A stretch of DNA of 64,000 bases, taken from positions 10,425 through 74,424 of the forward strand of contig JAOAET010000041.1 of the NCBI GenBank assembly GCA_026416665.1, given 5' to 3'. Made by a program: the position numbers and the translations under genes. How positions within the stretch are numbered: position 1 is the stretch's first letter; every line of letters starts with the position of its first letter. The notes under the pieces are model-generated. The model was not told the DNA's origin. It was given only the letters and a program-made list of their open reading frames with translations, and ran no database searches. Positions 20,294 through 38,661 of the stretch are shown here, piece after piece. This stretch comes from Candidatus Omnitrophota bacterium (GTDB taxonomy: Bacteria; Omnitrophota; Gorgyraeia; Gygaellales; Profunditerraquicolaceae).

Positions 20294-22303
20294 ATGGAAA
20301 ATACTACTTTACAAACTTATGGTAGTAAGTTTGTTTCTCAGCTTCTAACCACAATTCGGCTTATTTCCATTTATCCTGCCAAACATCCTCTTATTGTTAA
20401 CGCCTTGAAAACACTGATGAGCTACTTGGAATCTTTACTTACTACAGAAGACGTTCTAGAATTGGCTATTTCTCCAGATAACAGGGTTATTCTTAATCAA
20501 TTTGTTATTCAAGAAAAAGGTCAAGGTACAGTTAATGATTTTATTTCTCTATTTAAGAAACTAGAAGTAGAAAGTCTTATTTTTTCGCGGGGTCTAACCG
20601 TAGAAGAAATGGACAACTTTGTTAAATTTTTTATTAGTGATAAAGAAAAACTTAAATCCAAGCAAAACCTAAATACATTTTTCGAGGCACAGGGAATAAA
20701 GCATATCAAAGCCCGGCAGTATGAGTATCTGAAAATAGAAAAAGGTAAAGAGGCGACCCTTTTGGAAGGTAAGCTGAAAGACGTAGAGTTATTGAAGAAA
20801 AAAATAAAAGATTTTAGCCAAAAAAAGATATCAGAACCTGCTGATATACAAACTATTCAGGAAGGCGTTTTTAATCTAGTAAAAGAGGAATTCAAGCAAG
20901 AAGGAAAAATAAACAGTTCTATAAAAATACTTTTAAAAAAATTTATATTACATTCTTCAGACCATAATAATGTTCTAGAAAAATTGCGCCAAGCACTTAT
21001 TGATTTTGGTTGCCCCCCAGAACAAGTAGATAGTTTGATTAGCAGGATAAGGGAGGAAATTTCTCAGCCCCAGCAGTCTCGTGCGCGAATAACTAAAGAG
21101 GATTTGGAACTGTTACAGAGACAGAATAACCAGTTGAAAGAACAGTTAACAACTCTTCGTCAGGAAATAGAAAGACACAGATGGGCGTTAGAAGAACTAA
21201 AAAAAGAAAATAGAAAAATTATTAGTGAAAAACAGCGTATTGATAACATTGTTCATAATATGGCAGAGGGAATGGTGGTAGTTGACGCAGAGGGAAAAAT
21301 TATTTTGGTAAATCCTGCTGCCGAGCAGCTTTTAGGAATTACTAAAGAAGATATTGGTAAGCCCATACGCCAGGTAATTAAAGACGAACATCTATTGACC
21401 TTGACTAAGCAAATTACTGCCGATGCAGAAGGGATAGTAGAGAAAGACATTGAGTTGGTTTCAGCAGATGAATCTACCAAGCGGGTTCTACGAACTAGCT
21501 CTGCAGTAGTTGAAGATAATGAGGGACGAACTGTGGGTATGGTTACGATGCTAAATGATATTACTCGTCAGAAAGAAATTGAGAATCTAAAAAGTCAGTT
21601 TGTAGCAAGCGTTTCCCATGAGTTACGTACACCTTTAGTGGCTATTGAGAAGTCTATTAGTTTAATGTTAAGCAAAGCCGCAGGAGAAATTAACGAAACC
21701 CAGAGTCAATTCCTTAATATAGCAGAACGTAATCTTAAGCGCCTGACCGCGTTGATTAATGACCTTTTAGATTTGTCTAAACTTGAAGCAGGGAAAATGG
21801 TCCTAAAACGAAGACCTGTCTCGCTTGCTTCGCTTATTCAGGATGCCATAGAAAGTATGTTGAATTGGGCCGGGAGTAAATCTATTGCTCTAAAAAAAGA
21901 AATTGCGCAGGATTTGCCACTTATTGAACTTGACCCGGATCGGATTATTCAGGTTTTAAACAATCTTATTGGTAATGCTATTAAATATACTCCATCTGGA
22001 GGTCAGATTACTGTTAAAGCCAGATTTGTCAGTCAAGAGCACTGTGTGGAAGTAGAAGTAGAGGATACAGGTATTGGGATTCCTGAGGAGGATTTAGATA
22101 AGGTATTTGAAAAGTTTTACCAGGCAAAAGGACATGAGCAAACTGAGATTAAAGGCACAGGGATAGGTCTTGCAATAGTTAAAGAGATAGTCACCCTTCA
22201 TGGAGGAAAAGTATGGGTAGAAAGTCAGTTGGGTAAAGGGTCACGTTTCTTTTTTACTATTCCGCAGACAGGGGAGGAAGATAATGACAGACAACCAAAT
22301 TAA
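20294..22303 (+). CDS. PAS-domain sensor histidine kinase with long coiled-coil/HAMP-less N-terminal region
   Basis: PAS (VVDAEGKIILVNPAAEQLLG), H-box SHELRTPL, HATPase_c N/G boxes (NLIGNAIKYT, GTGIGLAIV). 669 aa. Confidence 0.8.
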   Translation: MENTTLQTYGSKFVSQLLTTIRLISIYPAKHPLIVNALKTLMSYLESLLTTEDVLELAISPDNRVILNQFVIQEKGQGTVNDFISLFKKLEVESLIFSRGLTVEEMDNFVKFFISDKEKLKSKQNLNTFFEAQGIKHIKARQYEYLKIEKGKEATLLEGKLKDVELLKKKIKDFSQKKISEPADIQTIQEGVFNLVKEEFKQEGKINSSIKILLKKFILHSSDHNNVLEKLRQALIDFGCPPEQVDSLISRIREEISQPQQSRARITKEDLELLQRQNNQLKEQLTTLRQEIERHRWALEELKKENRKIISEKQRIDNIVHNMAEGMVVVDAEGKIILVNPAAEQLLGITKEDIGKPIRQVIKDEHLLTLTKQITADAEGIVEKDIELVSADESTKRVLRTSSAVVEDNEGRTVGMVTMLNDITRQKEIENLKSQFVASVSHELRTPLVAIEKSISLMLSKAAGEINETQSQFLNIAERNLKRLTALINDLLDLSKLEAGKMVLKRRPVSLASLIQDAIESMLNWAGSKSIALKKEIAQDLPLIELDPDRIIQVLNNLIGNAIKYTPSGGQITVKARFVSQEHCVEVEVEDTGIGIPEEDLDKVFEKFYQAKGHEQTEIKGTGIGLAIVKEIVTLHGGKVWVESQLGKGSRFFFTIPQTGEEDNDRQPN

Positions 22304-22673
22304 GGTTTTAGTAACCGATGACGAAAAGGATTTTCGGGATCTTTTGGCATTTTGGTTAAAATCTAAAGGGTATGATGTAATCACAGCTAGTAACGGTATT
22401 GAGGCAGTAGAGAAGATTAAACAAGAATCTCCGGATGTTGTCTTTTTAGATTTAAATATGCCGGATAAGTACGGAACTGATACACTTAAAGAAATCAAAT
22501 CCTTTAATAAAGATTTACCCGTAATAATCATTAGCGCCCATGTAGACGACCGTAGAGCAAAGGAGGCAATGGATTTAGGTGTTGCTGGTGTATTTTATAA
22601 GGGCAGTGACTTTCAGCAAGGGCTTACTCTTTTAGAAGCAGCTCTCCATACCCATAAAAAGCTTAAGAAATAG
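22284..22673 (+). CDS. single-domain response regulator
   Basis: VLVTDDEKDFRD ... VFLDLNMPDKYG receiver motifs. Overlaps the kinase stop by 20 nt (translational coupling). GGGGAGG RBS. Confidence 0.8.
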   Translation: MTDNQIKVLVTDDEKDFRDLLAFWLKSKGYDVITASNGIEAVEKIKQESPDVVFLDLNMPDKYGTDTLKEIKSFNKDLPVIIISAHVDDRRAKEAMDLGVAGVFYKGSDFQQGLTLLEAALHTHKKLKK

Positions 22674-22698: not shown

Positions 22699-22725
22699 CC
22701 GCAAGGTACCCTTGCGGTTTTTTTA
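22699..22725 (+). terminator. Rho-independent terminator
   Basis: CCGCAAGG-TAC-CCTTGCGG perfect 8-bp stem followed by TTTTTTTT. Confidence 0.65.
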
Positions 22726-22736: not shown

Positions 22737-22766
22737 TTGACAATTTAAAAAATTTTAGGATATAAT
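22737..22766 (+). promoter_or_regulatory. sigma70-like promoter (TTGACA-N18-TATAAT) for the secretin module A
   Basis: Consensus -35 at 22737..22742 and consensus -10 at 22761..22766, immediately after the terminator and 66 nt before the MerR-like gene. Confidence 0.55.
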
Positions 22767-22831
22767 AGATTTACGATAATTACCATAACTGTTAAAATTT
22801 TATAAAATCTAAATTCTAAGGAAGTGATTGT

Positions 22832-23089
22832 ATGATAAGAATAATTACCAAAAAATCTGGTGTTGACAATAAACTTATTTCAGCAAAACAGATAATGGCA
22901 AAGTATGGGATTACTTACCAGACAATAAATCACTATACTGATTTAGGGTTATTACCCTTAGTAGAAAAAAAAGGAAACGTTCGTTTCTATAATGAAAAAC
23001 AAGTATGTAAACGCTTATCTAAGATAAAGCATCTTGCTCAGGAAGGATATTCTCTTCGGCTTATTCGCAAAAAACTATTAGGCATATGA
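22832..23089 (+). CDS. MerR-superfamily HTH-only small DNA-binding protein (module A)
   Basis: 85 aa. ISAKQIMAKYGITYQTINHYTDLGLLP...GNVRFYNEKQV...GYSLRLIRKKL fits a MerR N-terminal winged HTH with no effector domain. Paralog of 30003..30233. Confidence 0.6.
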   Translation: MIRIITKKSGVDNKLISAKQIMAKYGITYQTINHYTDLGLLPLVEKKGNVRFYNEKQVCKRLSKIKHLAQEGYSLRLIRKKLLGI

Positions 23090-24102
23090 TATCAAAAAGA
23101 ATATTTTTTATTGTTGGGATAACCAGTCTGATTCTCTTTTTAAATAACAGCATGGTAGTTGCTGAAGAAGTTAAAGAACCACCTAGTAATACGCAAAAAA
23201 TGATTGGTGAGTTTTCTGGTTGGAATGTACCTGTGCCTGTTTCTAACTATAATTTTGTTAAGTATGCAATTTACCTGTTTGGAACTCGCTGGGGAGAGCA
23301 GCCGACTACTGAACAAGAATTAGAAGACAGGGTATGGGAACAACTTATTCTTTCCTATGAAGCTTTCAGGCGTAATATAAAAGTTGAGGAAGCTGAGATT
23401 GATGAAGAAATAGATAAGATGTTGAAGTCAGACAAAGTAAATTTTGACTGGCGCAAGGACCAAGATGCCTTTAAAAAGTGGGTAAAAGATAAAGCAAATA
23501 TTGAGATAAATTTGTTCCGTGAGATACTAAGGCACCTGTTGCAGCTAGAAAAACTTCGGAAAGAGGTATTAGATTCTTTCACCGTAAGTGTAACCGAAGA
23601 AGAGGCACTTAATGAATTTATTAATGAATATAATACTATGGAATTAGAATTGGTGCAATTTGACGAACTTAAAGATGCAGAGAAATTTTTTCAGGAGATG
23701 CAGGATCCTAAGAAGTGGCAAGAGCAGGCGGCTAAAGAACCCAAACGTTATCAACACCCCGGTTTTGTTTCTTTTGAGTTTTTAATTAATATGTGGAAAA
23801 TACCTAAAGAGGATCTTTATAAAATGCTAGAGATGGAGGTGGATTCTATTTATCCACCGCGTCCGATTTATCGCGGATGGGGTGTTTTTAGGATATTAAA
23901 AAAACGACCAGCTGATCCTAAAGAATTTCCCCAGGTACGCGATTCGTATTTTAAACAAGTAGAGATGCTTAAAAAATATGATAAGCTAAAAGAGTGGTTA
24001 AATAAATTAAAAGAGGATGCCAAAATAAAAATATACCCTAAGGTAGAAGAAGATAAAAAGTCTAGCAATAAACTTAACCCAAAGAGAATACTTTTCTGCT
24101 AA
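23086..24102 (+). CDS. secreted periplasmic protein, possibly SurA-N-like chaperone fold
   Basis: Signal peptide and a K/E-rich helical sequence. The domain call is weak. Confidence 0.35.
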   Translation: MISKRIFFIVGITSLILFLNNSMVVAEEVKEPPSNTQKMIGEFSGWNVPVPVSNYNFVKYAIYLFGTRWGEQPTTEQELEDRVWEQLILSYEAFRRNIKVEEAEIDEEIDKMLKSDKVNFDWRKDQDAFKKWVKDKANIEINLFREILRHLLQLEKLRKEVLDSFTVSVTEEEALNEFINEYNTMELELVQFDELKDAEKFFQEMQDPKKWQEQAAKEPKRYQHPGFVSFEFLINMWKIPKEDLYKMLEMEVDSIYPPRPIYRGWGVFRILKKRPADPKEFPQVRDSYFKQVEMLKKYDKLKEWLNKLKEDAKIKIYPKVEEDKKSSNKLNPKRILFC

Positions 24103-24105
24103 AAG

Positions 24106-24642
24106 ATGGCGAATAAAAAACGGGTTATTTTATTGGAAAATATTGTAAGATTCTTTTACGATGAAAGAAATCAATTGGATATCAAAAAAATTAATATTTT
24201 TCTCTTCTGTATCTTGATAGTAGTTATTCTTAATTTTGCGCGTCTGGTTATAACTTCCGCACAAGCAATAAGTAGGATTGATCTTGAAAAAGGCATTTCT
24301 TTGGAACCACCTGCTCTTTTGTCAACCCCAAAAGAAGACAGTAATTTACCAGAACTAAATAATTACTTACCGGCTATAAAACAACGCAATATCTTTAGAA
24401 TGGGAAAGTTTAGTCAACTGAGAGAGGAAACTACTTCTGGTAAGGCTCAGGAGATCAAGGCACAATATCAGCTAGTAGGTATTTCTTGGTCAGATGACCC
24501 TGATGCACTCATTGAAGACACTAAGCTACAGAAGACTTATTTTGTAAAAAAAGGCCAGTTGGTCGGAGATATGAAGGTAGAAGCAATCTATCGTGATAGG
24601 GTGGTATTGCGGTTAGGACAAGACCTTATTGAGTTAAAATGA
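24106..24642 (+). CDS. PilP/GspC-like secretin-interacting protein (N-terminal TM + C-terminal beta domain)
   Basis: TM helix. The C-terminus YQLVGISWSDDPDALIEDTKLQKTYFVKKGQLVGDMKVEAIYRDRVVLRLGQDLIEL follows the PilP/GspC HR-domain pattern (G.VKV..I..D.VVL). Confidence 0.45.
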   Translation: MANKKRVILLENIVRFFYDERNQLDIKKINIFLFCILIVVILNFARLVITSAQAISRIDLEKGISLEPPALLSTPKEDSNLPELNNYLPAIKQRNIFRMGKFSQLREETTSGKAQEIKAQYQLVGISWSDDPDALIEDTKLQKTYFVKKGQLVGDMKVEAIYRDRVVLRLGQDLIELK

Positions 24643-26474
24643 GATATTTCTTTGTAAGAGGGTTTAAAATCAAGTTTTGCTTTTTCGTTTTTTGTTTAGT
24701 AGCTTTTTTTTACATACTTGATTTTTTAAAAGTTGAGGCAGAAGAATTGAAGCAACTTGCTCAGGTACCCTCAATTACTCCTTTGATGGTGGGCCCTTCC
24801 TATGAAGAAAACAAAGTAAATATAGGTATGCAGGGAACTATTTCTCTTGACTTACGTAATATAGATATTGTAGATGCATTAAAGTTTCTTGCTACAAAGG
24901 CAAAAATAAATATTATCACCACCAAAAATGTTGCAGGAAGAGTTACATTGTTGGTAGAGAATGCAGTTATTCAAGATGTCTTTGATATAATATTGCGCAG
25001 TAATAATCTTGCTTACGATAAGAAAGGTGACATATATAATGTGATGACCCAAGAAGAATACCGTATCTTATATGGGAAAAACTTCTCAGATGTAAGACAA
25101 GTAAAAGTGTTTTATCTTAAATATGCAATCCCTGAACAGGCTTTTGCTCTTATTGATATGTTAAAAAGTGAAATAGGTCGCGTTTTGGTTGATCCAGAGA
25201 CAGGTAGTATTATGGTGATGGATTCTCCTGAAAGGCTTACTTTGATTGAAGAGGTATTGAAAGATTTTGAAGCAAAAAATACCATTAAGGTTATAAAACT
25301 CAATTATGCAAAGGCAAAAGATATTGAAGAGGCTTTAAAGAATCAACTTGATATCAAAAAGGTAGGATTAATTAAGGCAGACGAGCGTGGTAATCAGATA
25401 ATTGTCCAGACACTGCCGGAACGGATGGAACAGATTGAGGCATTAGTGAAAGCTTTAGACCAAAAGACAAGACAAATCATTATTGAAGTAAGTATAGTAC
25501 AAATCAATTTAAATGATATACTTACACAAGGAATTCAATGGGAAGGCCTGTTTAATCTTTTTTCTAATTCCAAGAAGCTATTGTATCTTGGTTCCTATCC
25601 TTTCAGCTCTGTTCAAGCTTCTAACGACCCTTGGCGGTCAAGATATTCCACCTGGCAGACAGTAGGAAATGTAGGTTCTTATCCTTTTAGTGGCACTACT
25701 TCTAACTACTCAGCCAGCAGACCAGTAATTTCAACTAGCACTATGCATTTAGGTCTAGTAGGCACACAAGACTTTGATATATTGTTGCAATATCTTCAGA
25801 CATTGGGTAGTACTCGTATAATCTCTAATCCTAAGATTGCAGTAACCAACAATCAAGAGGCGAAGATTCATGTAGGACAAAAAGAGGCATATGTAACCAC
25901 AACAACTACTACTGGTCAGACTACTAATACTGTCTCAGAAGAGGTGAATTTTGTTGATGTCGGTGTGATATTGTCCGTAGTTCCCACTATTAATGAAGAG
26001 GGTTTTATTAATTTAAAGGTAAAAGCAGAGGTAAATTCAGTTATTGATACCCTAATTACTCCGACTGAAAATAAAATACCTATTATTGATACTTCCTTAG
26101 CAGAAACCACTGTTCTTGTGAAAGAAGGTGCCACAGTTATTATTGGGGGATTACGTAAAGATACAAAAAATGAGCTGATTAAACAAACTCCCTATTTAAG
26201 TAAAATACCATTATTCGGAAATCTTTTTAAATTTAAGACCAAAGAAACTGTGCACAGCGAGTTAATGATTGTAATGACACCGAAAATTATAAGTGGAGAG
26301 GTATTTGTAGCTACTGCGGAAGGAAAACTTGCTGGACAGTCAGGCTTAAAACCCACAAGAGATTATGAAAGTAAATTGGAGGATTTTAAGCCACAACCTT
26401 CAGCTGATAAGGTATATGTACCAATAGGAAAAGATGAAAGACTACAACTTAGACCATTACGAAAACAAAACTAA
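24639..26474 (+). CDS. secretin (PilQ/GspD/MshL-like outer-membrane channel), module A
   Basis: N-terminal secretin_N-type repeats. C-terminal secretin domain: NPKIAVTNNQEAKIHVG...VKEGATVIIGGL...TPYLSKIPLFGNLFK...ELMIVMTPKII. Confidence 0.8.
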   Translation: MRYFFVRGFKIKFCFFVFCLVAFFYILDFLKVEAEELKQLAQVPSITPLMVGPSYEENKVNIGMQGTISLDLRNIDIVDALKFLATKAKINIITTKNVAGRVTLLVENAVIQDVFDIILRSNNLAYDKKGDIYNVMTQEEYRILYGKNFSDVRQVKVFYLKYAIPEQAFALIDMLKSEIGRVLVDPETGSIMVMDSPERLTLIEEVLKDFEAKNTIKVIKLNYAKAKDIEEALKNQLDIKKVGLIKADERGNQIIVQTLPERMEQIEALVKALDQKTRQIIIEVSIVQINLNDILTQGIQWEGLFNLFSNSKKLLYLGSYPFSSVQASNDPWRSRYSTWQTVGNVGSYPFSGTTSNYSASRPVISTSTMHLGLVGTQDFDILLQYLQTLGSTRIISNPKIAVTNNQEAKIHVGQKEAYVTTTTTTGQTTNTVSEEVNFVDVGVILSVVPTINEEGFINLKVKAEVNSVIDTLITPTENKIPIIDTSLAETTVLVKEGATVIIGGLRKDTKNELIKQTPYLSKIPLFGNLFKFKTKETVHSELMIVMTPKIISGEVFVATAEGKLAGQSGLKPTRDYESKLEDFKPQPSADKVYVPIGKDERLQLRPLRKQN

Positions 26475-26488
26475 CCAAAGAGCTCTTT

Positions 26489-29400
26489 ATGAGAAAAATA
26501 ATTTTTAACAAAAAAATTGTGGAAGAGGCATTGTTAATATCAATTATTGGGTTAGTTATTGCAGGTTTAAACGAACCAACATTTGCAAAGGAAAGAAGTA
26601 AATCAAAAACAGAAACCCAACTTCGGGAAGTAGACATTCTTAGGAAAGAATTGTTGAAGGCCCAAGAGGCTTTGGCTAATTTAAAATCCTTATATGCTGA
26701 TAAAGAAATTCAAGTGAAGCAGCTTTCTTTAAAATTGACTAAACTTGAAGAGGATTTTAGACAAGCACAGGAAACAGTTATTAGATTAAGAAGAGACAAA
26801 GAGGAATTAAGCCAACTTCAGACAAAACTTTCTTTGCAGCTAAAATCTTTAGAGACAGAAAAAGCAATTTTAAAGAAACAAAATGAGCTTCTTTCAACTT
26901 GTAATGAGGAAAATAAGGCGAAGACAAAAGAATTAACGGTACTGAGGGCAAACTGCGCTAAACAAAATCAAGACTTTTTGAATAAACAACAAGAGCTAGA
27001 GGCTACAATTGCAGCTTATGAAAACAAAAATCAACAGCTTATACAACAAAAGGCAGAATTAGAGTTAAAATATGCTTCTTGTAGTCAAGCCTTAACTGAA
27101 CGTAAAAACTTTGAAATTAGTTGCTTGGCACAGAAAGAGTCACTGCTAAAAGAATTACAAGACGTTAGACGGCAAAGAGATATGTTACAGAAAGATTTGG
27201 CTTCTGCTCAGGCTCAGACTGCAGAGGTATCTAATCTTTACGAGCGCCTAAAGCAACAACAGCAGATGGAAGAAGAACTTGGTCAGTTGCGTCGTAACGT
27301 TGCGCAGTTGCAAAATGAACTGAAAATATCACAAGAGCAAAATAAAAAGCTTTCGGAGATAGCTTCTAAATACAATAAACAAGCAGACTTAGCTGATCAG
27401 CTGTATCAACTACGAAAGCAATTGTCTATTTGTGAGGCGCAACGGATCCAACTAGAAAAACAACAACAGCAGCCCGATGTTCAAATTAGCCGTTTACGTT
27501 CTGAGATTGCACAGCTTGAAAAACAAAAATTGATGTTGGAAGAGACTTGTAATAAAGCTAAAAAGCAGCATGATGAATTAGGACGCAAGCTATCCGAAAT
27601 GAGCAAAAAATTACAGTTACTGCAAAATGAAAATAAGATGCTTAAGGAAAGTGTTTTGGCTTCGGATAAACAGACGTTGCTAAAAGAACTTGAGCTTCTA
27701 CGTAGGGATTTAGAAAAGAGCCAAGAAGAGAAGAAAAAGATAGAAGATTCCGCAAGACAAAATAAGCAAGAAACCCAAAAGGCACAACAACAGCTTGAGG
27801 TATTACGTAATAAACTAACTGCTTTAAAGACCTGTGAAGAAAATATAGAAAAACAAAGACAGCAATTAGCGGATTGTCAAGAACGTGTAAATCAAATAGA
27901 GTTACTTAAAAAGGAATTAGAATCCTTACGCACTAAGAATCAACATTTACAACAGCAAGTTCAGCAATGCACAGCGACTAATCAGCAGGGAAATACTTCC
28001 TTAAATAAAGAATTGGAGAAAGCTAATAAAGAACTGGAATTATTGCGTCATACTAACCAGCAGTTAGAGAAAAAAGCGCAAGAAATTTTTACCTTAAGAC
28101 AGAAAGAATCAGATGAGAAAACAAAGGAAATAGCTCTCCTCAAGAAAGAAATGGAAGATTTACGTAATATAAACAATAAACTCCAGCAAAGAATACAGCA
28201 GGCCGATGAAGAAGTAAAAGAGAAGAAAAAATGTGCTGAAGAGATTAATCTATTAAAAAGAGAACTTAAACAGGTGAATGACAAAAATAGGCAACTAAGT
28301 AAAAAAATAGAAGGGTGCCAAGCAGGAAGTCAACAGCAGCTGGTTGAATGTAACAAGAGAGTTGAATATCTTAACAAAGAATTAGAACAACTACGTAGCG
28401 TAAATAAAAAATTACAACAGAAAAGCGAAGAGGTTCTGACAACTCCAAAAGATTCCGCGCAGGAGAATAAAGAATACATTCAGTTAAAAGAAAAATATAG
28501 GCAATTAGAACAGGAACGCAATCGCCTTCAAGAAGAAATTAAGCAATTACAAAAACAACAGGCAGATTTAGTTACTCAATATGAAGCACGGTTAAAGAAA
28601 GAACCTATGCTTTCTAAGTCTTCCACTGATAGTAGCGAAACCGTCGCAATCCTCAAACAGGAGTTAACTAAAGCGCAGGAATTGTCCTATCAACTGGTTA
28701 AGGAGAAAGCGGATTGCCAGAAACGGTACGAGGAGCTTAGCGAACAGCTAAATAAAGCTTTATTAGTTAAAGAAGCTCAAGAGAAAGAAAAACAGGATAT
28801 AGAGCGGAAAAATAAAGAACTAGAAGAACAATACAAAAACTTATCATTACAGCTTTCGCGGCTAATGATACAGTATGGAGAATTAGGACAACAAAATCAA
28901 CAACTAACCAATGCTAACGCCAATTGCCGTAGTGAAATTGTTTCTGTTCAGAACAAACTACAACAAGCAGAACAATTGGTATCTTCACTTCAGTTAGAAG
29001 TGGAAAGGATGAAAAAAGAAAATAATGACCTCAATGTAAAGTTTTTTAACGAAAAGTTACAACGAGAACAAGATGTTGCTTTGGTGCAGGCGCAATGTAA
29101 CCAGCAGATTGCCTTAAAAGAGGGTGAATATGTTCAGCTTTCGAAAAAATTTGAAGATTTTCGTAATCAAAAACAGGTTCAGGTTACTGCTTTAGAAAAT
29201 GAACTTGCTTCGGTTAAGAAAGAATTAGCCGATGCACAAAATCTTTCCTTTCAGATGGTTCAGGAAAAAGGTTCCCTTTCCGGGCAACTTAAAAAGCTAA
29301 CAGAACAGTTACAAGCCACAGAAAATCAAAATACTCTTTTAATACAGCAAAAGACAGAATTAGAAAAACAAAATGCTTTCTTAAAGGAACAGTATATCTC

Positions 29401-30016
29401 TATATCCCAGGAATTAAAAAAGGTTCAGGAAGATACCAAACGAATAGAAAAAGTAAAGATTCCGCAGGAATTAGAGCGTTGTGTAAGTGAATTAAATTCT
29501 CTTAAGAGAGAGCTTGCTAATAAAGATGCTGAGTATCTTAAGAAGATAAAAGAATATGAACAGAAGTATAAAGAAACCAGTAGTACAGATAAGAATAAAC
29601 AAAGTCTTATTAAGGAACTTGCGCAGTTAAAAACCAAGTATGAGGAATTAGAAAGAAGATACCAGATGTCTGAGAAGATTCGTAAAGATTTAGAGGCAAT
29701 TAAAGAGCGTTATGGTAAATTACCCGAAGAGAATGCCAATCTTCACTATAATTTAGGGGTTTTATACGCAGAAAAGAAAGATTACGATAAGGCAATAACA
29801 GAATTTAAAAAGGTTATTGAGCTTAAACCTCGTGATGCAGAGGCGCATTATAATCTTGGAGTAATTATTGGTGAGTATTTAGGTAACCGCAAAGAAGCAC
29901 TACCATATCTTGAAAAATTTCTAGAATTAGCACCGCAGGACCCCGAAGCAGATAAGATTCGCAAATATATTGTTACCTGGAAAACTTTTAGTGAGGGACA
30001 AGATGACCAGCGCTAA
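26489..30016 (+). CDS. giant (1175 aa) membrane-anchored coiled-coil protein with C-terminal TPR domain
   Basis: N-terminal TM, about 1000 aa of Q/E/K/L heptad sequence, and a C-terminal TPR (HYNLGVLYAEKKDYDKAITEFKKVIELKPRDAEAHYNLG). Confidence 0.7.
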   Translation: MRKIIFNKKIVEEALLISIIGLVIAGLNEPTFAKERSKSKTETQLREVDILRKELLKAQEALANLKSLYADKEIQVKQLSLKLTKLEEDFRQAQETVIRLRRDKEELSQLQTKLSLQLKSLETEKAILKKQNELLSTCNEENKAKTKELTVLRANCAKQNQDFLNKQQELEATIAAYENKNQQLIQQKAELELKYASCSQALTERKNFEISCLAQKESLLKELQDVRRQRDMLQKDLASAQAQTAEVSNLYERLKQQQQMEEELGQLRRNVAQLQNELKISQEQNKKLSEIASKYNKQADLADQLYQLRKQLSICEAQRIQLEKQQQQPDVQISRLRSEIAQLEKQKLMLEETCNKAKKQHDELGRKLSEMSKKLQLLQNENKMLKESVLASDKQTLLKELELLRRDLEKSQEEKKKIEDSARQNKQETQKAQQQLEVLRNKLTALKTCEENIEKQRQQLADCQERVNQIELLKKELESLRTKNQHLQQQVQQCTATNQQGNTSLNKELEKANKELELLRHTNQQLEKKAQEIFTLRQKESDEKTKEIALLKKEMEDLRNINNKLQQRIQQADEEVKEKKKCAEEINLLKRELKQVNDKNRQLSKKIEGCQAGSQQQLVECNKRVEYLNKELEQLRSVNKKLQQKSEEVLTTPKDSAQENKEYIQLKEKYRQLEQERNRLQEEIKQLQKQQADLVTQYEARLKKEPMLSKSSTDSSETVAILKQELTKAQELSYQLVKEKADCQKRYEELSEQLNKALLVKEAQEKEKQDIERKNKELEEQYKNLSLQLSRLMIQYGELGQQNQQLTNANANCRSEIVSVQNKLQQAEQLVSSLQLEVERMKKENNDLNVKFFNEKLQREQDVALVQAQCNQQIALKEGEYVQLSKKFEDFRNQKQVQVTALENELASVKKELADAQNLSFQMVQEKGSLSGQLKKLTEQLQATENQNTLLIQQKTELEKQNAFLKEQYISISQELKKVQEDTKRIEKVKIPQELERCVSELNSLKRELANKDAEYLKKIKEYEQKYKETSSTDKNKQSLIKELAQLKTKYEELERRYQMSEKIRKDLEAIKERYGKLPEENANLHYNLGVLYAEKKDYDKAITEFKKVIELKPRDAEAHYNLGVIIGEYLGNRKEALPYLEKFLELAPQDPEADKIRKYIVTWKTFSEGQDDQR

Positions 30017-30233
30017 ATATATAACTGCAAAAGAAATTGCTCAGAAATATGCCCTTTCTTATCAAAGTATAAACCGCTATTCTGACGCAGGTCTTTTACC
30101 AGTTGCTTTCAAAAAAGGAAATATTCGTTATTTTGAACGTTCAGTAGTAATTAAACGAATGAAAACTATCTTAGAAATGAGTAAGGATGGGTACTCTTTG
30201 TTGTTGATACGCAAAAAAATTTTGGGTATTTAA
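30003..30233 (+). CDS. MerR-superfamily HTH-only small DNA-binding protein (module B paralog)
   Basis: MTSAKYITAKEIAQKYALSYQSINRYSDAGLLP...GNIRYFERSV...GYSLLLIRKKILGI. The start was chosen at the internal ATG 30003. Overlaps the stop of the 1175 aa gene. Confidence 0.6.
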   Translation: MTSAKYITAKEIAQKYALSYQSINRYSDAGLLPVAFKKGNIRYFERSVVIKRMKTILEMSKDGYSLLLIRKKILGI

Positions 30234-30234
30234 T

Positions 30235-31977
30235 ATGCGTTTTTGTGGAATAGTTTATTTAATTATCTGGGGCATTTTCATTACGGCTAAATGTGGTTTA
30301 GCTCAGCAAAGCGGTTTTCGTGATTTGGATTTTCCTCAGAAACGTATTTCTTTGGACCTAAAGGATATGGATATTATCGAAGCATTAAAATATATTGCCA
30401 CAAAAGCCCAGATGGATATTATCCCCACCAAAGAGGTTTCAGGTAGAGTTTCTCTTACGGTTCAGGATGTCCCTGTTAAAGATGTTTTTGAGATTATCTT
30501 ACGCAGCAACAATCTTGTTTACGAAAAACGGGGTTCTATCTACAATGTAATGACTGAAAATGAATATAAGAATCGTTTTGGGAGAAGTTTTTATGATAAT
30601 AGAATTTTTAAAGTAATTCAGCTACAATACGCCTCTCCTGAACAGGCATTGACTCTTTTAAATTCAATGAAAAGTGATGTTGGCAAGGTGCTTATTGACC
30701 CTGATTCTGGAATTATACTTATTCTTGATACCCCTGAAAGGGTAGCAAATATGGAGGCTACTTTAAGGGCAATGGATCAGAAAAGTATAATAAGAGTTTT
30801 TAATTTAAAGTATGCCCGTGCCAAAGATATGGAAGAAAAGCTTAAAACACAACTTGACCTTAAAAAAGTTGGTTCAGTAAAAGCTGATGAGCGAACAAAT
30901 CAATTGATTGTTCAGACGTTACCACAGAGAATGGAAGAAATAGCCAAGTTAATTGAAAGCCTTGACCAGAAGACACGACAGATTCTTATTGATGCCAAAA
31001 TAATTCAGGTGCAGTTAAATGATGCAACAAGCTCAGCGGTAGAGTGGGAAGGTCTTTTTCAGCTTAGTAAAAAGCACGGCATGACTTATTTAGGGTCATA
31101 CCCTTTTAGTTCAGTTCAGGCATCCACAGACAGTTGGCGTTCACGTAAAGATACACTTACAGAGGTAGGATACGTAGGGTCTTTTCCTTTTTCTGGCACA
31201 ACCTCAAATTACTCTGCAGGCAGGCAAAGTGTGGGGATTCAAGAAATGCATTTAGGAGTTATTGGCAAAAATGATTTTGATGTTATAATAAAGTATCTGC
31301 AGTCATTGGGACAGACCCGTATTCTTTCTAATCCTAAGTTAGCAGTGGTAAACAACCAAGAGGCAAGAATTCATGTTGGCGAGCGACAAGCTTATATTAC
31401 TACTACCACCACTCAGACGCAGACTTCTACTACTGTATCTGAAGCAGTAACGTATGTAGACGTGGGGATTCAGTTAGCAGTAACTCCCACTATCAATGAG
31501 GATGGATTTGTTACTGTAAAGATAAAGCCTGAGATTTCTAGTGTGGTTAGTTATCTTGAGACTTCCAGTAATAACAAAATACCTATAATTGATACTTCTA
31601 CTGCAGAAACTATTGTAATGGTAAAAGACGGAACAAGTATCTTAATAGGAGGTCTTAGTAAACAGGAAAAGGTAAATACCTCTGAAGGTGTACCCTTGTT
31701 GCAGAAGGTTCCTGTTTTAGGAAAGATATTTTCCAATAAGGTTGATAAAACAAAACGCTCGGAACTAATGGTATTGTTGACTCCGCATGTAGTAGAAGGC
31801 GATGAGTTAGTTACTGGTTCTCAGAGTGACTTCGGTTATAAATTAGATAAAGAATATCAAAAATACCCTGAGTTCTTAGATGAACCAGTAGAATTGGAAC
31901 CGAAACCTTATCAAACGTATCCACCACTTAGAGGTGAGCAAAGTTTACCAACTTTAAAACCTGAGCGTAGTTTTTAG
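30235..31977 (+). CDS. secretin (PilQ/GspD/MshL-like), module B paralog
   Basis: The same architecture as 24639..26474 with collinear similarity throughout (e.g. NPKLAVVNNQEARIHVG, LIGGLSK, VPLLQKVPVLGKIF, ELMVLLTPHVV). Confidence 0.8.
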   Translation: MRFCGIVYLIIWGIFITAKCGLAQQSGFRDLDFPQKRISLDLKDMDIIEALKYIATKAQMDIIPTKEVSGRVSLTVQDVPVKDVFEIILRSNNLVYEKRGSIYNVMTENEYKNRFGRSFYDNRIFKVIQLQYASPEQALTLLNSMKSDVGKVLIDPDSGIILILDTPERVANMEATLRAMDQKSIIRVFNLKYARAKDMEEKLKTQLDLKKVGSVKADERTNQLIVQTLPQRMEEIAKLIESLDQKTRQILIDAKIIQVQLNDATSSAVEWEGLFQLSKKHGMTYLGSYPFSSVQASTDSWRSRKDTLTEVGYVGSFPFSGTTSNYSAGRQSVGIQEMHLGVIGKNDFDVIIKYLQSLGQTRILSNPKLAVVNNQEARIHVGERQAYITTTTTQTQTSTTVSEAVTYVDVGIQLAVTPTINEDGFVTVKIKPEISSVVSYLETSSNNKIPIIDTSTAETIVMVKDGTSILIGGLSKQEKVNTSEGVPLLQKVPVLGKIFSNKVDKTKRSELMVLLTPHVVEGDELVTGSQSDFGYKLDKEYQKYPEFLDEPVELEPKPYQTYPPLRGEQSLPTLKPERSF

Positions 31978-31985
31978 GAGAGAAA

Positions 31986-32930
31986 ATGATAAGATTATTT
32001 AAAATAAGTTTAATAGCTGTTATACTCAGTCATATAATAGATATCTCTTCTGTCTTTGCGCAAGCAACATTACAAGAAGAGTTCAATAAGTTAAAGAAGC
32101 AGTATGAATTGGTGGTCGCCGACAGAGATAATATTTTAGCCCAGACAAAGGGATTACTTGAATATAAAAATCGTTATAAGGAATTAGAAACAGAGTATGA
32201 CAAACTAAAAAAAGAAAATGACCAACTGAAAATAGACCTTCAATTAGCTAAAGAACAAATTACTAATCTCCAGCAGCTGCAAGGTGAATGGGAGATAACT
32301 AAAGGTCAGCTTGAACGAGAAAATAAAGAGTTAAAGGCATCTTTAGAAAAGGTTACTGTGGAATACAAGATGCTTCCGGAATTACGTAAGGAGTTAAATT
32401 CAATTAAAAATGAAAACACAGCACTTAGACGTTCTATGCAGTCACTTGAAGCAAAGGTAAAACAGCTAAATCAACAAAAACTTAATGACGATGCACAGCT
32501 TGAGATATACCGTATCCAAATAAAAGATTTAAAGAAACGTTATGAACAGGCACTGGCAAAAAATAGAGAATTAGAAAAACGAGCACAAAACCTACCTAAA
32601 CGTTTTGCAGAGTTGGCTCGTGAGAACAAAATGCTTATTAAAGAGACAGCACTAATGCATTATAATTTAGGTGTCTTTTATACAAAGAATAAGGAATTTT
32701 CACGGGCAATAGCGGAGTTTGAAAAAGCAGCAGAGCTTAATCCTGAAGACCCAGCAGTTTATTATAATCTTGGTTATATCTATGCAGAATACCTAGTAAA
32801 TAGGCCTAAGGCAATTGAATACTTTAAAAAGTATCTAGGTGTAGCCAAACCAGGGGATAAGGATATGGACTGGGTTAAGAAATATATTGTAACATGGGAA
32901 ACGTGGGAGGGTAAAAAACCAATGAAATAA
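31986..32930 (+). CDS. coiled-coil protein with C-terminal TPR domain (short paralog of the 1175 aa protein)
   Basis: Signal/TM, about 200 aa of coiled coil. The C-terminus MHYNLGVFYTKNKEFSRAIAEFEKAAELNPEDPAVYYNLGYIYAEY...KKYIVTWE is collinear with the C-terminus of 26489..30016. Confidence 0.65.
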   Translation: MIRLFKISLIAVILSHIIDISSVFAQATLQEEFNKLKKQYELVVADRDNILAQTKGLLEYKNRYKELETEYDKLKKENDQLKIDLQLAKEQITNLQQLQGEWEITKGQLERENKELKASLEKVTVEYKMLPELRKELNSIKNENTALRRSMQSLEAKVKQLNQQKLNDDAQLEIYRIQIKDLKKRYEQALAKNRELEKRAQNLPKRFAELARENKMLIKETALMHYNLGVFYTKNKEFSRAIAEFEKAAELNPEDPAVYYNLGYIYAEYLVNRPKAIEYFKKYLGVAKPGDKDMDWVKKYIVTWETWEGKKPMK

Positions 32931-32945
32931 GAAGGAGGGGCGAGA

Positions 32946-33530
32946 ATGAAGAGAGCGATAGTTTTTACCGCAGTTTTTAGTCTTCTACTGTTAGTTGTAA
33001 ATGAGGTACTTGCTTGGTCTATATTTGGAAAGAAGAAAGAAACTTCACCAACAACCACACAACAAGATACTGCCAAATCCACACCAACTCCTGCAGTCGC
33101 TTCACCTCAGAAGACACCTGAGGAGTTGAAACGCGAAGAGGCACTTAAAGTACGTAAAGCACAGGCACAACGTAAATTAGCGGAGCTTAATAATACTGAA
33201 TGGCAGATTGAGTTAACTCCTCTTTATAGTAAAGGAAAGAAAGAAACAGATACAGTAGTTTTCAAAGAAAATAAAGTTTCTTTGGTTAACTTTAGTAAGA
33301 AAGGATTTGGTCCTACTAATTTTACTTTAACCGTTCAAGAAGATGGAATGGTAGTTTGGGAGACAATGCAGACCTCTGAAAAAGGGCAATTAGTATTTTG
33401 GCGAGGTGAGATGGATACAGATTTAAAGCAAATGCGGGGAGTAGCCAGCTATCAAATAGACCAGAACAACAAACAGGATTATTCTTTCATAAGTATATCA
33501 AAGAAGAATCTACCTATTACGGATAAGTAA
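32946..33530 (+). CDS. secreted protein with Thr/Pro-rich linker, unknown function
   Basis: Signal peptide, a low-complexity TSPTTTQQDTAKSTPTPAVASPQKTP linker, and a globular C-terminus. Located immediately upstream of the ExeA-like ATPase. Confidence 0.45.
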   Translation: MKRAIVFTAVFSLLLLVVNEVLAWSIFGKKKETSPTTTQQDTAKSTPTPAVASPQKTPEELKREEALKVRKAQAQRKLAELNNTEWQIELTPLYSKGKKETDTVVFKENKVSLVNFSKKGFGPTNFTLTVQEDGMVVWETMQTSEKGQLVFWRGEMDTDLKQMRGVASYQIDQNNKQDYSFISISKKNLPITDK

Positions 33531-33531
33531 T

Positions 33532-34440
33532 ATGTATGAGGCCTACTGGGGGCTAACAGAAAAACCATTTGAAAATACCCCTGACCCACGTTTTTTCTAC
33601 TACTCACAACAACATAAAGAGGCAATTGCCCGCATGCTCTATGTGGTGCGTGAGCATAAAGGGGCAGCTCTTTTTACAGGAGAATATGGTTGCGGGAAAA
33701 CACTTCTTTCACGTATCTTATGGCAGGAATTACAACAGGAGAATCGCTACCAACCTGTATTTATCTTAAATCCCCGCCTGTCGGGTGTAGAGTTTATTCA
33801 AGAAATTGTCCATCAGTTAGGAGGTGCTTTTGAATCTCAGGCAAAGATTGATTTATTTCATTGTCTACATAAGATACTCTACGCCAACCATAACGCAAAT
33901 AAACACAGTGTTATTATTATTGATGAGGCACAGGCAATTAAAGATAAAGATACTTTCGAAGAGATAAGATTGCTTTTAAATTTCCAGTTGGATAATGCCT
34001 TTCTTTTAACCATTATCCTGTTGGGACAACCAGAGTTAAAATTTACTGTAATGAGTCTTCCACAATTTATGCAAAGAATGGCGGTTCGTTTTCATTTGAA
34101 GGCCTTTAATGAAATAGAGACCAGACAATATATTGAACATCGCTTAGCAGTCTGTGGAGTGAAACGACAACTGTTTGCGGACGAGGCATATAAAGAGATA
34201 TATGTTGTTACCGGTGGCATACCCCGTCGTATTAATACCATATGTGATTTGGCTTTGTTAGTTGGTTTTGGTTTAGGTTTGACTATTATAGACCACCAAA
34301 CCATCATAAAAATTAATCAGGACTTAGAATCACCTGATTTTAACGGTTCACTTCAACAACCTCTACAGACCGCTAGTGATAATTCTACAAATAACGGAGC
34401 AAGTCAGATTGATTCCTTAAAAGTCAAACCACAGACATAG
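33532..34440 (+). CDS. ExeA/GspA/MshM-like AAA+ ATPase
   Basis: N-terminal YWGLTEKPFENTPDPRFFYYSQQHKEA...LFTGEYGCGKTLLSR (ExeA signature plus Walker A) and a Walker B IIIIDEAQ. Confidence 0.75.
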   Translation: MYEAYWGLTEKPFENTPDPRFFYYSQQHKEAIARMLYVVREHKGAALFTGEYGCGKTLLSRILWQELQQENRYQPVFILNPRLSGVEFIQEIVHQLGGAFESQAKIDLFHCLHKILYANHNANKHSVIIIDEAQAIKDKDTFEEIRLLLNFQLDNAFLLTIILLGQPELKFTVMSLPQFMQRMAVRFHLKAFNEIETRQYIEHRLAVCGVKRQLFADEAYKEIYVVTGGIPRRINTICDLALLVGFGLGLTIIDHQTIIKINQDLESPDFNGSLQQPLQTASDNSTNNGASQIDSLKVKPQT

Positions 34441-34463
34441 AATAATAGCAATAATTAATAAAG

Positions 34464-35564
34464 ATGTTAAGTATTCTAAATGTATTGAAAAAATATTATG
34501 AAGAGAAGAAGAAGACAGCTGAAGGTGTATCTTCTAATTCTGAAAAAGAGCGTTCAGATGTAACTTCAATAGTACAGAATTTAGAACTTCCTTCCTTGGC
34601 AGACTGCGGTGCTACAAGAGAATCAATAAGTATTTTTACTGTGGTAAACAGACAGTCAGAGGAAGAGAAGGCTCAGAAAGCAAGAGAATTTTATTTTAAT
34701 CTTGTAAATTGGCTAAGAAAGATTTATACAACAGAATTCCAAGCGAATGCACAATTTAAAGAAGAGTGTTTTAGTTTTATTGATGAGCAGTTAACGTATC
34801 TTAACACTGCCGTTGAGGAATTGATTCATCAAGCAAATAGTGACTATCCTGTTGATGAGACCTGGCTTGCTTCTCATGCAGCAGCAGTAAGTGTGATTGC
34901 TTTAGAGATAGCCAAGGGGTTAGAATATAATAGGCAGAAGCTTATGGAACTGGCAGCTTGTGTATTCTTTCATGATATTGGAATGCTTAAGATTTTGGAC
35001 ATTGTCCAGAAACAATCACAATTAAGCAAAGAAGAGTTGGCGCAGATAAGACAACATCCTATTATGGGGACAAGTCTTTTAGGGACGATGAATCTTGGAC
35101 TATTTAGTTGTATAGGTGAGGTTATATTACAAGAGCATGAGCGGATAGATGGTAGTGGGTATCCTCAAGGTTTAAAGCAAGATACAATTAATGAATATGC
35201 AAAGATATTGGGCCTTGCGGATATTTACGAAGCACTTACTCATAATCGCCCTTATCGTAGAAGAATTACACCACCTAAGGCAATAAACTTGATTCTAAAT
35301 AACAAACATCTGTTTGATGCGAAAGTTTTGAAAAAACTTTTAGAACGCATAGGGGTCTTTCCAGCAGGGAGTCTGGTGCGTCTAAATACAAAAGAAATTG
35401 GGGTGGTCACGAAGATTAACCATCAGCTTCCACTTAGGCCCACAGTGTTAGTTTTATTTGAAGAGAAAGGAACAAGACTTTCGGCACCAAAAGAACTTGA
35501 CCTCTCAAAAAATTTTTTACTTTGTATTGAGGAGTGTATTGAGGAAAATGTAACAGTATCTTAA
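34464..35564 (+). CDS. HD-GYP domain protein (c-di-GMP phosphodiesterase family)
   Basis: HDIGMLKI and HERIDGSGYPQGL motifs in the C-terminal half. The N-terminal half has no recognisable domain. Confidence 0.75.
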   Translation: MLSILNVLKKYYEEKKKTAEGVSSNSEKERSDVTSIVQNLELPSLADCGATRESISIFTVVNRQSEEEKAQKAREFYFNLVNWLRKIYTTEFQANAQFKEECFSFIDEQLTYLNTAVEELIHQANSDYPVDETWLASHAAAVSVIALEIAKGLEYNRQKLMELAACVFFHDIGMLKILDIVQKQSQLSKEELAQIRQHPIMGTSLLGTMNLGLFSCIGEVILQEHERIDGSGYPQGLKQDTINEYAKILGLADIYEALTHNRPYRRRITPPKAINLILNNKHLFDAKVLKKLLERIGVFPAGSLVRLNTKEIGVVTKINHQLPLRPTVLVLFEEKGTRLSAPKELDLSKNFLLCIEECIEENVTVS

Positions 35565-35573
35565 AATAAATCT

Positions 35574-37346: not shown

Positions 37347-37349
37347 AGA

Positions 37350-38225: not shown

Positions 38226-38372
38226 AGTGGTAATGGGGCCAGAATTATTTCTGTCTTAAGTTTAATTTCTTTTTAAAACCAACATCTAATTCCAGAGACA
38301 GTAACATTTAAGATTAAATTTTTGATTACATATATATCTTTTTTTAATAAAAACTATGGTAAAATAAATTAT

Positions 38373-38660
38373 ATGGATACACTCTACGAAAAAAATCCTG
38401 ACGTTATTTTTAGAAAAATTGCTGGTGAATATCTGCTTATGCCCATAAAACAAAAGGCAGTAGATTTAAGAAGTATCTATACCTTAAACGAAACAGCTTC
38501 CTGTATCTGGCAACTTCTTGATGGTAAAACAACTATTGGTGATATACAAAAAGCACTTTGTGAGCAATTTGATATTACTTCAGAGCAAGCACTTTGGGAT
38601 ATTCAAGAATTTGTTAGTCAACTGGAGGCGTTAGGTTTTATTCATAGAATAAGCCGATAG
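38373..38660 (+). CDS. PqqD-like protein (RiPP recognition element, RRE)
   Basis: About 95 aa. NETASCIWQLLDGKTTIGDIQKALCEQFDITSEQALWDIQEFVSQLEALGFI is the PqqD/RRE pattern. The start was chosen at the internal ATG 38373. Confidence 0.6.
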   Translation: MDTLYEKNPDVIFRKIAGEYLLMPIKQKAVDLRSIYTLNETASCIWQLLDGKTTIGDIQKALCEQFDITSEQALWDIQEFVSQLEALGFIHRISR

Positions 38661-38661
38661 T

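Follow-up and report, generated by a model that had tools for sequence, protein, structure and literature searches.

A stretch of 64,000 nucleotides from a Candidatus Omnitrophota genome (contig JAOAET010000041.1, positions 10,425 to 74,424; hereafter the window) contains, at 22832-32930, two collinear modules, each encoding in this order a MerR-like helix-turn-helix (HTH) protein, a secretin and a coiled-coil protein that ends in a tetratricopeptide repeat (TPR) domain, as found by an open reading frame (ORF) map and domain searches. The locus is best read as an outer-membrane module of the type II secretion system (T2SS) kind, with an undescribed coiled-coil-TPR partner, duplicated and tied to an exopolysaccharide (EPS) operon, and not as a categorically new machine. 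In particular, the region would represent one half, that of the outer membrane and the periplasm, of a type II secretion (type IV filament) system specific to Omnitrophota, a half that has been duplicated and elaborated; to this reading we assign a probability of about 0.6. The homology of the paired genes, their duplication, the synteny with related loci, the co-conservation of secretin and partner, and the T2SS context of relatives of the module are all directly observed.

A Duplicated Secretin Module

The preliminary description of the window had claimed a tandem duplication of a MerR/secretin/coiled-coil-TPR module with collinear paralog pairs, and both points hold: the ORF coordinates agree, the domains are confirmed by Pfam and NCBIfam models, and all three pairs align by BLASTP, the MerR-like proteins (MerR-A and MerR-B) with 46% identity over 83 aa (E 6e-28), the secretins with 52% over 551 aa, and the TPR ends of the coiled-coil proteins with 41% over the last 131 aa (E 3e-29), including the motif HYNLGV...KYIVTW. 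The features given below between 20294 and 38225 all lie on the + strand.

Secretin A (611 aa, 24639..26474) and secretin B (580 aa, 30235..31977) share the same Pfam architecture, namely a signal peptide with a hydrophobic N-terminus, an N0/STN domain (E 8.7e-4 in A and 3.8e-9 in B), two Secretin_N domains and the secretin domain proper (PF00263, E 5.5e-43 and 9.4e-47), which places both in the Secretin superfamily. The best Protein Data Bank (PDB) matches of secretin B are XcpQ and PilQ and, judging from sequence, both secretins appear about equally close to GspD/XcpQ and to PilQ. Furthermore, each carries a C-terminal tail of ~55 aa which is conserved within each paralog (that of secretin B ends in ..LKPxRNF) and which, in a tail alignment, is absent from T2SS outgroup secretins. 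In a neighbour-joining tree of 125 distinct secretins, drawn without support values and accompanied by a smaller tree, three clades are found: secretins in the first position (47), secretins in the second position (37), and those of loci with a single secretin (37), the third being sister to the first. The duplication is therefore real and ancient, since the separation of A and B into position-specific clades implies that it predates the divergence of these lineages.

Coiled-Coil-TPR Proteins as Secretin Partners

Secretin A is followed by CC1175 (1175 aa, 26489..30016), which consists of a signal peptide, an almost proline-free coiled coil of ~1040 aa and a C-terminal two-repeat TPR domain (residues 1083-1126) ending in KYIVTW; secretin B is followed by CC314 (314 aa, 31986..32930), with a cleavable signal peptide, a coiled coil of ~190 aa and a C-terminal TPR domain of the CC1175 type (residues 222-291). 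The pairing of secretin and coiled-coil-TPR protein is the most robust new feature of the locus. A coiled-coil-TPR ORF with the matching C-terminal domain lies within 400 nt downstream of 92 of the 105 distinct clade secretins that have at least 600 nt of downstream sequence, the exceptions being mostly contig ends or frameshifts, and the co-conservation of these proteins with secretins in related genomes, without which the original proposal would have fallen, is thus found.

A short coiled-coil-TPR gene comes after every second or single secretin. In dual loci the first partner has roughly 630-1430 aa (a few, in some type II loci, have 376-399 aa) and the second ~305-360 aa, while the partner in single-secretin loci has ~340-370 aa. 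Among orthologs the coiled coil is fast-evolving and the C-terminus conserved. Inspected by eye, the N-termini resemble cleavable signal peptides in the dual lineage and uncleaved membrane anchors in the single-secretin loci, and a lipobox is seen in none. A HMMER search with the C-terminal domain against 1.84 billion representatives (clusters at 50% identity) gave 195 matches at E <=1e-30; the best 150 of these comprise roughly 90 single end-to-end C-terminal matches in proteins of 310-480 aa, the remainder being generic multi-repeat TPR proteins. An earlier homologue search with the 114-aa TPR end had matched only short fragments, and no description of such a partner, or of such a locus, was found in the literature searched.

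It had also been proposed that the partner differs from the usual TPR lipoprotein pilotin, and this is borne out. The signal peptide of CC314 has no cysteine and CC1175 has no lipobox, the coiled coil is long, and instead of several TPRs there are two repeats close to the consensus, which do not specifically resemble known pilotins; the PilW model scores 24.9 bits against a cut-off of 154. CC1175 also contains 16 cysteines along its otherwise uniform coiled coil, a lineage-specific trait: CC314 and CC590, a coiled-coil protein encoded further downstream, have none. A disulphide-stapled fibre was considered and rejected as a general feature because the orthologs of CC1175 have 0-10 cysteines.

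Type II Secretion Genes in Related Loci

The origin of the module is indicated by its relatives. In two independent contigs (L057 and L058), an AAA_22 ATPase gene is followed by genes for a GspC-like protein, a secretin, a 305-aa coiled-coil-TPR protein and GspE; the secretins fall within the clade of the window and are 54% identical to both window secretins, and L057 continues after GspE with GspF, GspG, GspK and PilM/N. This gene order makes the coiled-coil-TPR protein a component of a real T2SS gene set in these genomes. Omnitrophota secretins at a greater distance (34-40% identity) stand at the end of canonical T2SS operons, as in L017 (GspE-GspF-GspG-(minor pseudopilins)-GspK-PilM/N-PilO-AAA_22-GspC-like-secretin) and, in a similar arrangement, L016. 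Canonical operons in the outgroup, together with L057 and L058 inside the clade, indicate that the module is T2SS-derived. T2SS-like loci are reported to be conserved across Omnitrophota (West-Roberts et al. 2023, bioRxiv 10.1101/2023.11.21.568195) and widespread in the phylum (bioRxiv 10.64898/2026.06.07.730766).

In the window a gene at 24106..24642 encodes a bitopic GspC/PilP-like protein of 178 aa, with a transmembrane segment and a domain like the homology region (HR) of GspC. It precedes secretin A only, and no gspE-M genes accompany it in the 64 kb, whereas the equivalents in L057 and L058 stand in full T2SS operons. The presence of a PilP/GspC-like protein in the first module, as claimed earlier, is supported by its homology to the proteins in the GspC position of the T2SS operons L017 and L057; the model scores, on the other hand, are weak and below cut-off (Pfam T2SSC 21.7 bits, E 2e-4, cut-off 27; NCBIfam GspC 28.6 bits, cut-off 150; GspC_delta E 1e-6).

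Other loci of the collection show further variation. In L014 (354-7853) an ORF of 2499 aa lies directly upstream of the AAA_22, GspC-like and secretin genes, a neighbourhood reminiscent of the giant genes that have been reported in association with T2SS-like loci in Omnitrophota. In favour of the T2SS reading, a prepilin peptidase (A24_N_bact and Peptidase_A24) is encoded in L018 (2310-3119), from a related lineage, ~7 kb upstream of the same dual-secretin locus, and likewise in L019, L020 and L025; the equivalent stretch of the window is without it. In L052 (3983-17775) a MerR-MerR-p338-AAA22-GspC-secretin-coiled-coil-TPR array has secretin and GspK fragments and two PilM/N genes on its flanks; it may be a recombined T2SS region or a chimeric assembly and was not used as evidence.

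The Probable Operon and Its Conservation

The modules belong to a longer gene block. Between 22832 and 38225 the intergenic gaps or overlaps are of 23 nt or less throughout, and the + strand shows no strong terminator from 22770 to 38225. A strong sigma-70 promoter had been noted ahead of the first module, and a promoter-like site with a 12/12 consensus match (TTGACA-18-TATAAT) is indeed present at 22737..22766, directly after an intrinsic-terminator-like hairpin (22699..22717; 8-bp stem with six GC pairs, then a T run); a TTGACA-N16-19-TATAxT element stands upstream of the first MerR gene in ~40 related loci. Because of the short gaps, the single conserved promoter and the lack of a strong terminator, the genes from MerR-A to a Wza-like protein are probably co-transcribed as a single transcript.

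Apart from the genes already described, this block encodes six proteins. The first, p338 (23086..24102), is an exported homologue of SurA-N-like chaperones without a peptidyl-prolyl isomerase (PPIase) domain; its SurA-like nature is suggested by a weak PrsA-like match (E 1.6e-5), by marginal PDB matches to the SurA N-domain and by the domain make-up of longer relatives, its single-sequence AlphaFold2 (AF2) model being unusable (pLDDT 38). These relatives, of 476-534 aa and encoded in single-secretin loci, contain a SurA_N-like region, to which a cyclophilin PPIase domain is added in three of four that were scanned, in agreement with the PPIase noted in T2SS-like loci of Omnitrophota (bioRxiv 10.1101/2023.11.21.568195). 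After the second module follows p194 (32946..33530), an exported protein with a disordered linker, one helix and, in an AF2 model (pLDDT 84.5), an 8-stranded beta-barrel whose nearest PDB folds are Cap15, small outer-membrane barrels and avidins; a profile search against PDB sequences gave no match, and its family of 151 clusters is essentially restricted to Omnitrophota. A GspB/ExeB analogue was considered for p194 and rejected because the modelled barrel is of the up-and-down type and not of the HR/PilP fold.

Next are a cytoplasmic GspA/ExeA/MshM-like AAA_22 ATPase of 302 aa (33532..34440; AAA_22 E 5.6e-20), a probable c-di-GMP phosphodiesterase of the HD-GYP type (34464..35564; HD_5 E 5e-28, with the HD and GYP motifs in the sequence), and CC590 (35574..37346), which has an N-terminal membrane anchor and a coiled coil of ~560 aa, gave only coiled-coil-type matches and is conserved in position. 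The last gene of the conserved block (37350..38225) encodes a short Wza-like outer-membrane polysaccharide export (OPX) protein of 291 aa with TPR, Poly_export (E 4e-25) and one SLBB domain.

The order histidine kinase-response regulator-MerR-p338-GspC-secretin A-long coiled coil-MerR-secretin B-short coiled coil-p194-AAA22-HD-CC590-Wza is kept in 13 loci from metagenome-assembled genomes, and the window gene order is also found in contigs retrieved via the MerR protein and in many of 77 metagenome loci. No fully visible locus of the clade is without an AAA_22 gene; the T2-type, that of canonical T2SS operons, and the downstream type replace each other. The link with polysaccharide export, p194-(AAA22)-HD-GYP-CC590-Wza, is present in all six A/B dual loci that have at least 6.5 kb of downstream sequence and in none of the 13 single-secretin (S-type) loci, and it is seen in 12 A/B loci in all, the window included. 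An independent duplication inside the single-secretin clade (L064 and L075) is without it.

Taken together, the loci can be arranged in a graded series: one module within a T2SS operon; one module standing free, with MerR or a histidine kinase and response regulator at its head; a dual module with one MerR gene and the T2-type AAA_22; and the window type, with a second MerR gene, p338, a lengthened first partner and no T2-type AAA_22.

Weighing the Interpretations

Several observations count against a T2SS half. Domain scans of the 64-kb window found no pilin, GspE/PilB, GspF, GspG/L/M, PilM-O or prepilin peptidase, as the preliminary description had said for pilin, prepilin peptidase and PilB/GspE, and no prepilin-type N-terminus was found in any frame of the window; likewise, in 20 or more type I loci the matched secretin has no GspE/F/G/L/M, pilin or prepilin peptidase gene within 10 kb. 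Under the T2SS reading, the genes for the ATPase, the platform and the pseudopilins are assumed to lie elsewhere in the genome. The T2SS operons of L017, L016 and L057 carry their own secretin, and an extra secretin pair may thus not be needed by those operons. The window secretins score below cut-off with both the GspD model (TIGR02517; 224.0 bits for A and 245.7 for B, cut-off 351) and the PilQ model (TIGR02515; 239.5 and 251.6 bits, cut-off 284). The strictness of the Wza/HD-GYP/CC590 link in the A/B lineage hints at a different job and, finally, a coiled coil of 1040 residues would measure ~150 nm if extended, far beyond the width of the periplasm, and fits poorly with a simple pilotin role. 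It is well known that gspC-gspD units can stand apart from the other gsp genes, as in xcpPQ of Pseudomonas, and for this reason missing neighbours are weak evidence for autonomy. As regards the Wza link, it may reflect only the co-regulation of protein secretion and matrix polysaccharide, or it may mark a real functional shift.

In one rival reading the coiled-coil-TPR proteins, or at least CC1175, are cargo or surface fibres and not assembly factors: exported by Sec, they would pass through the secretin or hook onto it by the TPR end and form a fibre of ~150 nm, or ~28 nm in the case of the short one, with which these host-dependent nanobacteria attach. The lengths of ~1000-1400 aa with almost no proline, the fast evolution of the coiled coil next to a conserved C-terminus, and signal peptides that look cleavable in the A/B lineage, where single-secretin relatives have uncleaved-looking anchors, would suit such a fibre, as would the proposal that Omnitrophota are attaching predators or parasites (bioRxiv 10.1101/2023.11.21.568195; bioRxiv 10.64898/2026.06.07.730766). 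However, the ancestral form in T2SS operons, of ~305 aa, looks anchored in the inner membrane, which suits a periplasmic bridge, Pfam found no adhesin-type domain, and the signal peptides were called by eye and not with a predictor; we consider this explanation unlikely, if worth keeping in view.

Another rival, close to the idea in the preliminary description, is an autonomous two-channel envelope machine, tied to polysaccharide export and devoid of a type IV filament platform, in which the two secretins and their coiled-coil-TPR scaffolds work together with the short Wza/Wzc pathway; the secretins might, for instance, provide exits through the outer membrane, or rings for docking, for polymer or matrix proteins. 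Besides the absence of platform genes from the 64 kb, the distribution of the Wza link (six of six flanked A/B dual loci as against none of 13 single-secretin loci) and the loss of the T2-type AAA_22 from window-type loci speak for it, and the OPX protein in the same apparent operon is short, with only Poly_export and one SLBB domain and no C-terminal membrane helix. A TPR scaffold joined to an outer-membrane channel is, moreover, the logic of synthase-dependent polysaccharide systems (AlgK/AlgE, PelB, BcsC, PgaA), which would be followed here. Yet we know of no secretin that exports polysaccharide; the GspC-like connector and the GspA-like ATPase are retained, and both stand within T2SS operons in relatives; a candidate beta-barrel partner for the short OPX is encoded at 48217-49098; and co-transcription may mean co-regulation only. 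On balance such a machine is quite unlikely. The preliminary description had proposed a two-channel envelope machine rather than a pilus or T2SS: the duplication, the undescribed partner and the lack of platform genes nearby stand, but secretins of the same clade occur in T2SS operons, and a machine distinct from the T2SS is not supported by the comparative data.

More doubtful still is a bolder version, according to which the A/B pair and its coiled-coil-TPR proteins have left the T2SS and form, with CC590 and the short Wza/Wzc, a c-di-GMP-controlled, Omnitrophota-specific surface or matrix organelle with no pseudopilus; the secretin rings would then serve as gates in the outer membrane or as sockets for anchoring, and the 150-nm coiled coil would be a fibre that is extracellular or lines the periplasm. 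That the secretins are of the PilQ type and work in a type IV pilus or competence system whose pilM-P, pilB/C and pilin genes lie elsewhere is very improbable, for although the PilQ model scores slightly above GspD (239.5 vs 224 bits for A, 251.6 vs 245.7 for B) and PilQ of M. xanthus is the second-best PDB match, both proteins stay below the PilQ cut-off, no AMIN domain was found in them and no PilM/N/O in the window, the operons of relatives have GspG- and GspK-type pseudopilins, i.e., a T2SS, and for the outgroup secretin of L017 the GspD model gives the higher score.

A Proposed Mechanism and Its Significance

If the locus is the outer-membrane and periplasmic half of a T2SS, each GspD-type secretin paralog would form its own outer-membrane pore and would be served by a dedicated periplasmic coiled-coil protein, whose two-repeat TPR domain most likely binds the secretin, with the conserved, paralog-specific C-terminal tail as a plausible docking site. 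The coiled-coil-TPR protein would take the place of a lipoprotein pilotin and serve in assembly, anchoring or spacing, and the GspC/PilP-like protein, the SurA-N-like chaperone, the small beta-barrel protein and the GspA/MshM-like AAA_22 ATPase would complete the secretin-assembly set. Transcription from the conserved promoter is probably set by the two HTH-only MerR proteins, through predicted DNA binding, and by the upstream kinase and receiver, and with the HD-GYP protein and the short Wza on the same transcript, protein secretion and EPS export could be switched on together. Traits related to c-di-GMP are found on both sides, the MshEN and PilZ domains on the GspE of L057 and the HD-GYP protein in the window operon, and secretion and matrix polysaccharide are both classic c-di-GMP outputs. 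That GspE (L057, 6481-8625) carries MshEN at the N-terminus and PilZ at the C-terminus of a T2SSE domain, i.e., two potential c-di-GMP-binding modules on one ATPase.

Secretins are among the best-studied outer-membrane channels, and their targeting and assembly factors differ between systems; a conserved coiled-coil-TPR partner that is not a lipoprotein would add a new class of secretin accessory, found here in ~90 clusters at 50% identity among the best matches and in more than 90 loci. The locus also offers a stepwise evolutionary route, in which the outer-membrane module appears to have been released from a T2SS operon, then duplicated and then wired to polysaccharide export and c-di-GMP signalling. 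All this concerns a phylum of uncultured nanobacteria, probably dependent on hosts, in whose surface machinery there is current interest. Should the pair prove to need no pseudopilus platform, it would be the first such machine built on secretins, and the partner family, the 150-nm coiled coil and the linkage to Wza are features worth experimental study.

Regulatory and Neighbouring Genes

MerR-A (22832..23089, 85 aa; MerR_1 E 1e-10) and MerR-B (MerR_1 E 1e-4) are MerR-type winged-HTH proteins without dimerisation or effector region. Both pass the MerR_1 cut-off of 21.6 bits (42.1 for MerR-A, 22.5 for MerR-B), the helix 1-4 pattern of the N-terminal winged HTH is kept across 30 aligned family members, and the proteins, of 75-85 aa, stop directly after helix 4, where MerR regulators continue with a dimerisation coiled coil and an effector-binding region. 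The MerR-B gene (29970 or 30003 to 30233; 87 or 76 aa) overlaps the stop codon of CC1175 and ends 1 nt before secretin B, and the ATG at 30003 is the likelier start because the resulting 76 aa match orthologs of ~75 aa. The MerR-A family comprises 315 clusters of ~80 aa, nearly all of whose named matches are Omnitrophota; the few other taxon names in the MerR and p194 families appear to be binning or labelling errors. MerR-A and p194 each have a match of 100% identity in an Omnitrophica metagenome-assembled genome, and Candidatus Omnitrophota genomes also gave the closest genome matches. In some lineages two MerR copies stand in tandem at the start of the operon. A search for a MerR operator near the promoter gave only AT-rich, low-information repeats, and an Rfam scan of the window gave no match.

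Upstream of the promoter lie a PAS sensor histidine kinase (20294..22303; Pfam HATPase_c, HisKA and PAS), a neighbour kept in most type I loci, and a stand-alone receiver-domain response regulator of 129 aa without output domain (22284..22673; Response_reg E 1e-26), whose unit ends at the hairpin mentioned above; the order response regulator-MerR is kept across related loci. Before this unit are c-di-GMP proteins, a TolQR-like pair and housekeeping genes. In particular, 16049-19242 encodes the TolQ/ExbB-TolR/ExbD pair, a 186-aa ORF, a CBM_11-like protein and a class A beta-lactamase-family protein, and the last of these genes is found again upstream of the locus in L018-L020, as are its neighbours for Phage_holin_4_2, DUF502 and cytochrome c3. 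The c-di-GMP toolkit around the locus is dense: a receiver-domain protein with partial GGDEF similarity and an MshE-related c-di-GMP-binding motif (7724-8941), a PAS-GGDEF-HD-GYP protein (11942-13609), and the HD-GYP protein inside the operon (34464-35564).

Beyond Wza comes a PqqD/radical-SAM gene set, followed by a Wzx/Wzy-type polysaccharide locus (Wzc, Wzy, flippase, glycosyltransferases). The former, at 38322-46455 on the same strand and possibly a continuation of the operon, looks like a peptide-modification cassette within a polysaccharide locus and encodes a PqqD-like protein, a B12-binding radical SAM protein, a TPR protein, a second PqqD-like protein, a radical SAM/SPASM protein, an HprK-related kinase-like protein and a GNAT-NTP_transf_5 fusion; parts of this set recur after Wza in L008 and L050. 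The Wza-like protein shows no evident C-terminal outer-membrane helix, and 10 kb downstream of its gene an inverse-autotransporter-like beta-barrel of 293 aa (48217-49098) could be its outer-membrane partner. An oddity next to a secretion module is found in single-secretin loci, where p194-matching proteins of 416-430 aa carry an N-terminal IS200-like Y1 transposase domain (Y1_Tnp, E 1e-9 to 1e-11; L063 16119-17387, L064 15624-16874, L083 6932-8224).

Comparison With Known Systems

BldC of Streptomyces consists of a MerR-like DNA-binding domain only and shares with the window proteins the build of winged-HTH helices 1-4 without dimerisation helix or effector domain; however, a PDB search detected no sequence match to it (only 5gpe, E 0.005), and the window MerR proteins are encoded within a secretion operon, in two copies.

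Like the TPR pilotins PilF/PilW/Tgl of type IVa pili and TadD of the Tad system, the partner is a TPR protein encoded with a secretin on which it presumably acts, and there are weak matches to the PilW, Tgl and GltE models; it differs in that a TPR domain of only two motifs is fused to a coiled coil of 190-1040 residues and that the lipobox cysteine is missing. CpoB/YbgF of the Tol-Pal system is a periplasmic coiled coil with a C-terminal TPR, and the shared build extends to the signal peptide and to action in the periplasm between the membranes. Here the differences are that no YbgF model match is obtained at E 0.01, that the coiled coil of the window proteins is 3-15 times longer, and that the partner is a secretin instead of Tol-Pal.

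In the MSHA pilus the trio MshL-MshM-MshN consists of a secretin, an AAA_22 ATPase and a TPR protein, and the same three protein types are encoded side by side in the window; the NCBI text for TIGR03015 presumably relates this ATPase family to both MshM and GspA. The window secretins nevertheless score below the MshL cut-off of 250 bits (157.1 for A and 188.4 for B), no mshE/G or MSHA pilin genes lie in the window, and MshN is made up of TPRs only, with no long coiled coil. The downstream part of the operon and the window share with EPS loci of the XrtA/PEP-CTERM type the AAA_22 ATPase, a short OPX, Wzc, an HprK-like kinase and an ABC transporter. An example of such a locus, in Rubrivivax gelatinosus, has no secretins (PMC3684757). 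In the window the two characteristic models stay below cut-off (TIGR03015 with 221.5 bits vs 324.5 for the ATPase, TIGR03027 with 117.9 vs 180 for the OPX), and no exosortase was found among the scanned ORFs.

With respect to the T2SS, the window differs in having two tandem secretins, each with a coiled-coil-TPR partner, and no lipoprotein pilotin or GspB; in HTH-only MerR genes held within the operon; in its connection with Wza and HD-GYP genes; and in secretin scores below the GspD equivalog cut-off. Its ATPase has the AAA_22 domain of GspA/ExeA but, in a domain search and by its hydrophobicity, neither the peptidoglycan-binding domain nor the transmembrane segment, and there is no GspB partner of the HR fold. 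A T2SS subcomplex of GspC and GspD with GspA/ExeA is known from xcpPQ of P. aeruginosa and exeAB-exeD of Aeromonas, and it is with this set that the window shares a GspD-type secretin with N0 and Secretin_N domains, a GspC/PilP-like HR protein encoded directly upstream and a GspA-like AAA_22 ATPase, while relatives of the window module stand inside complete gspE-F-G-K-L/M operons.

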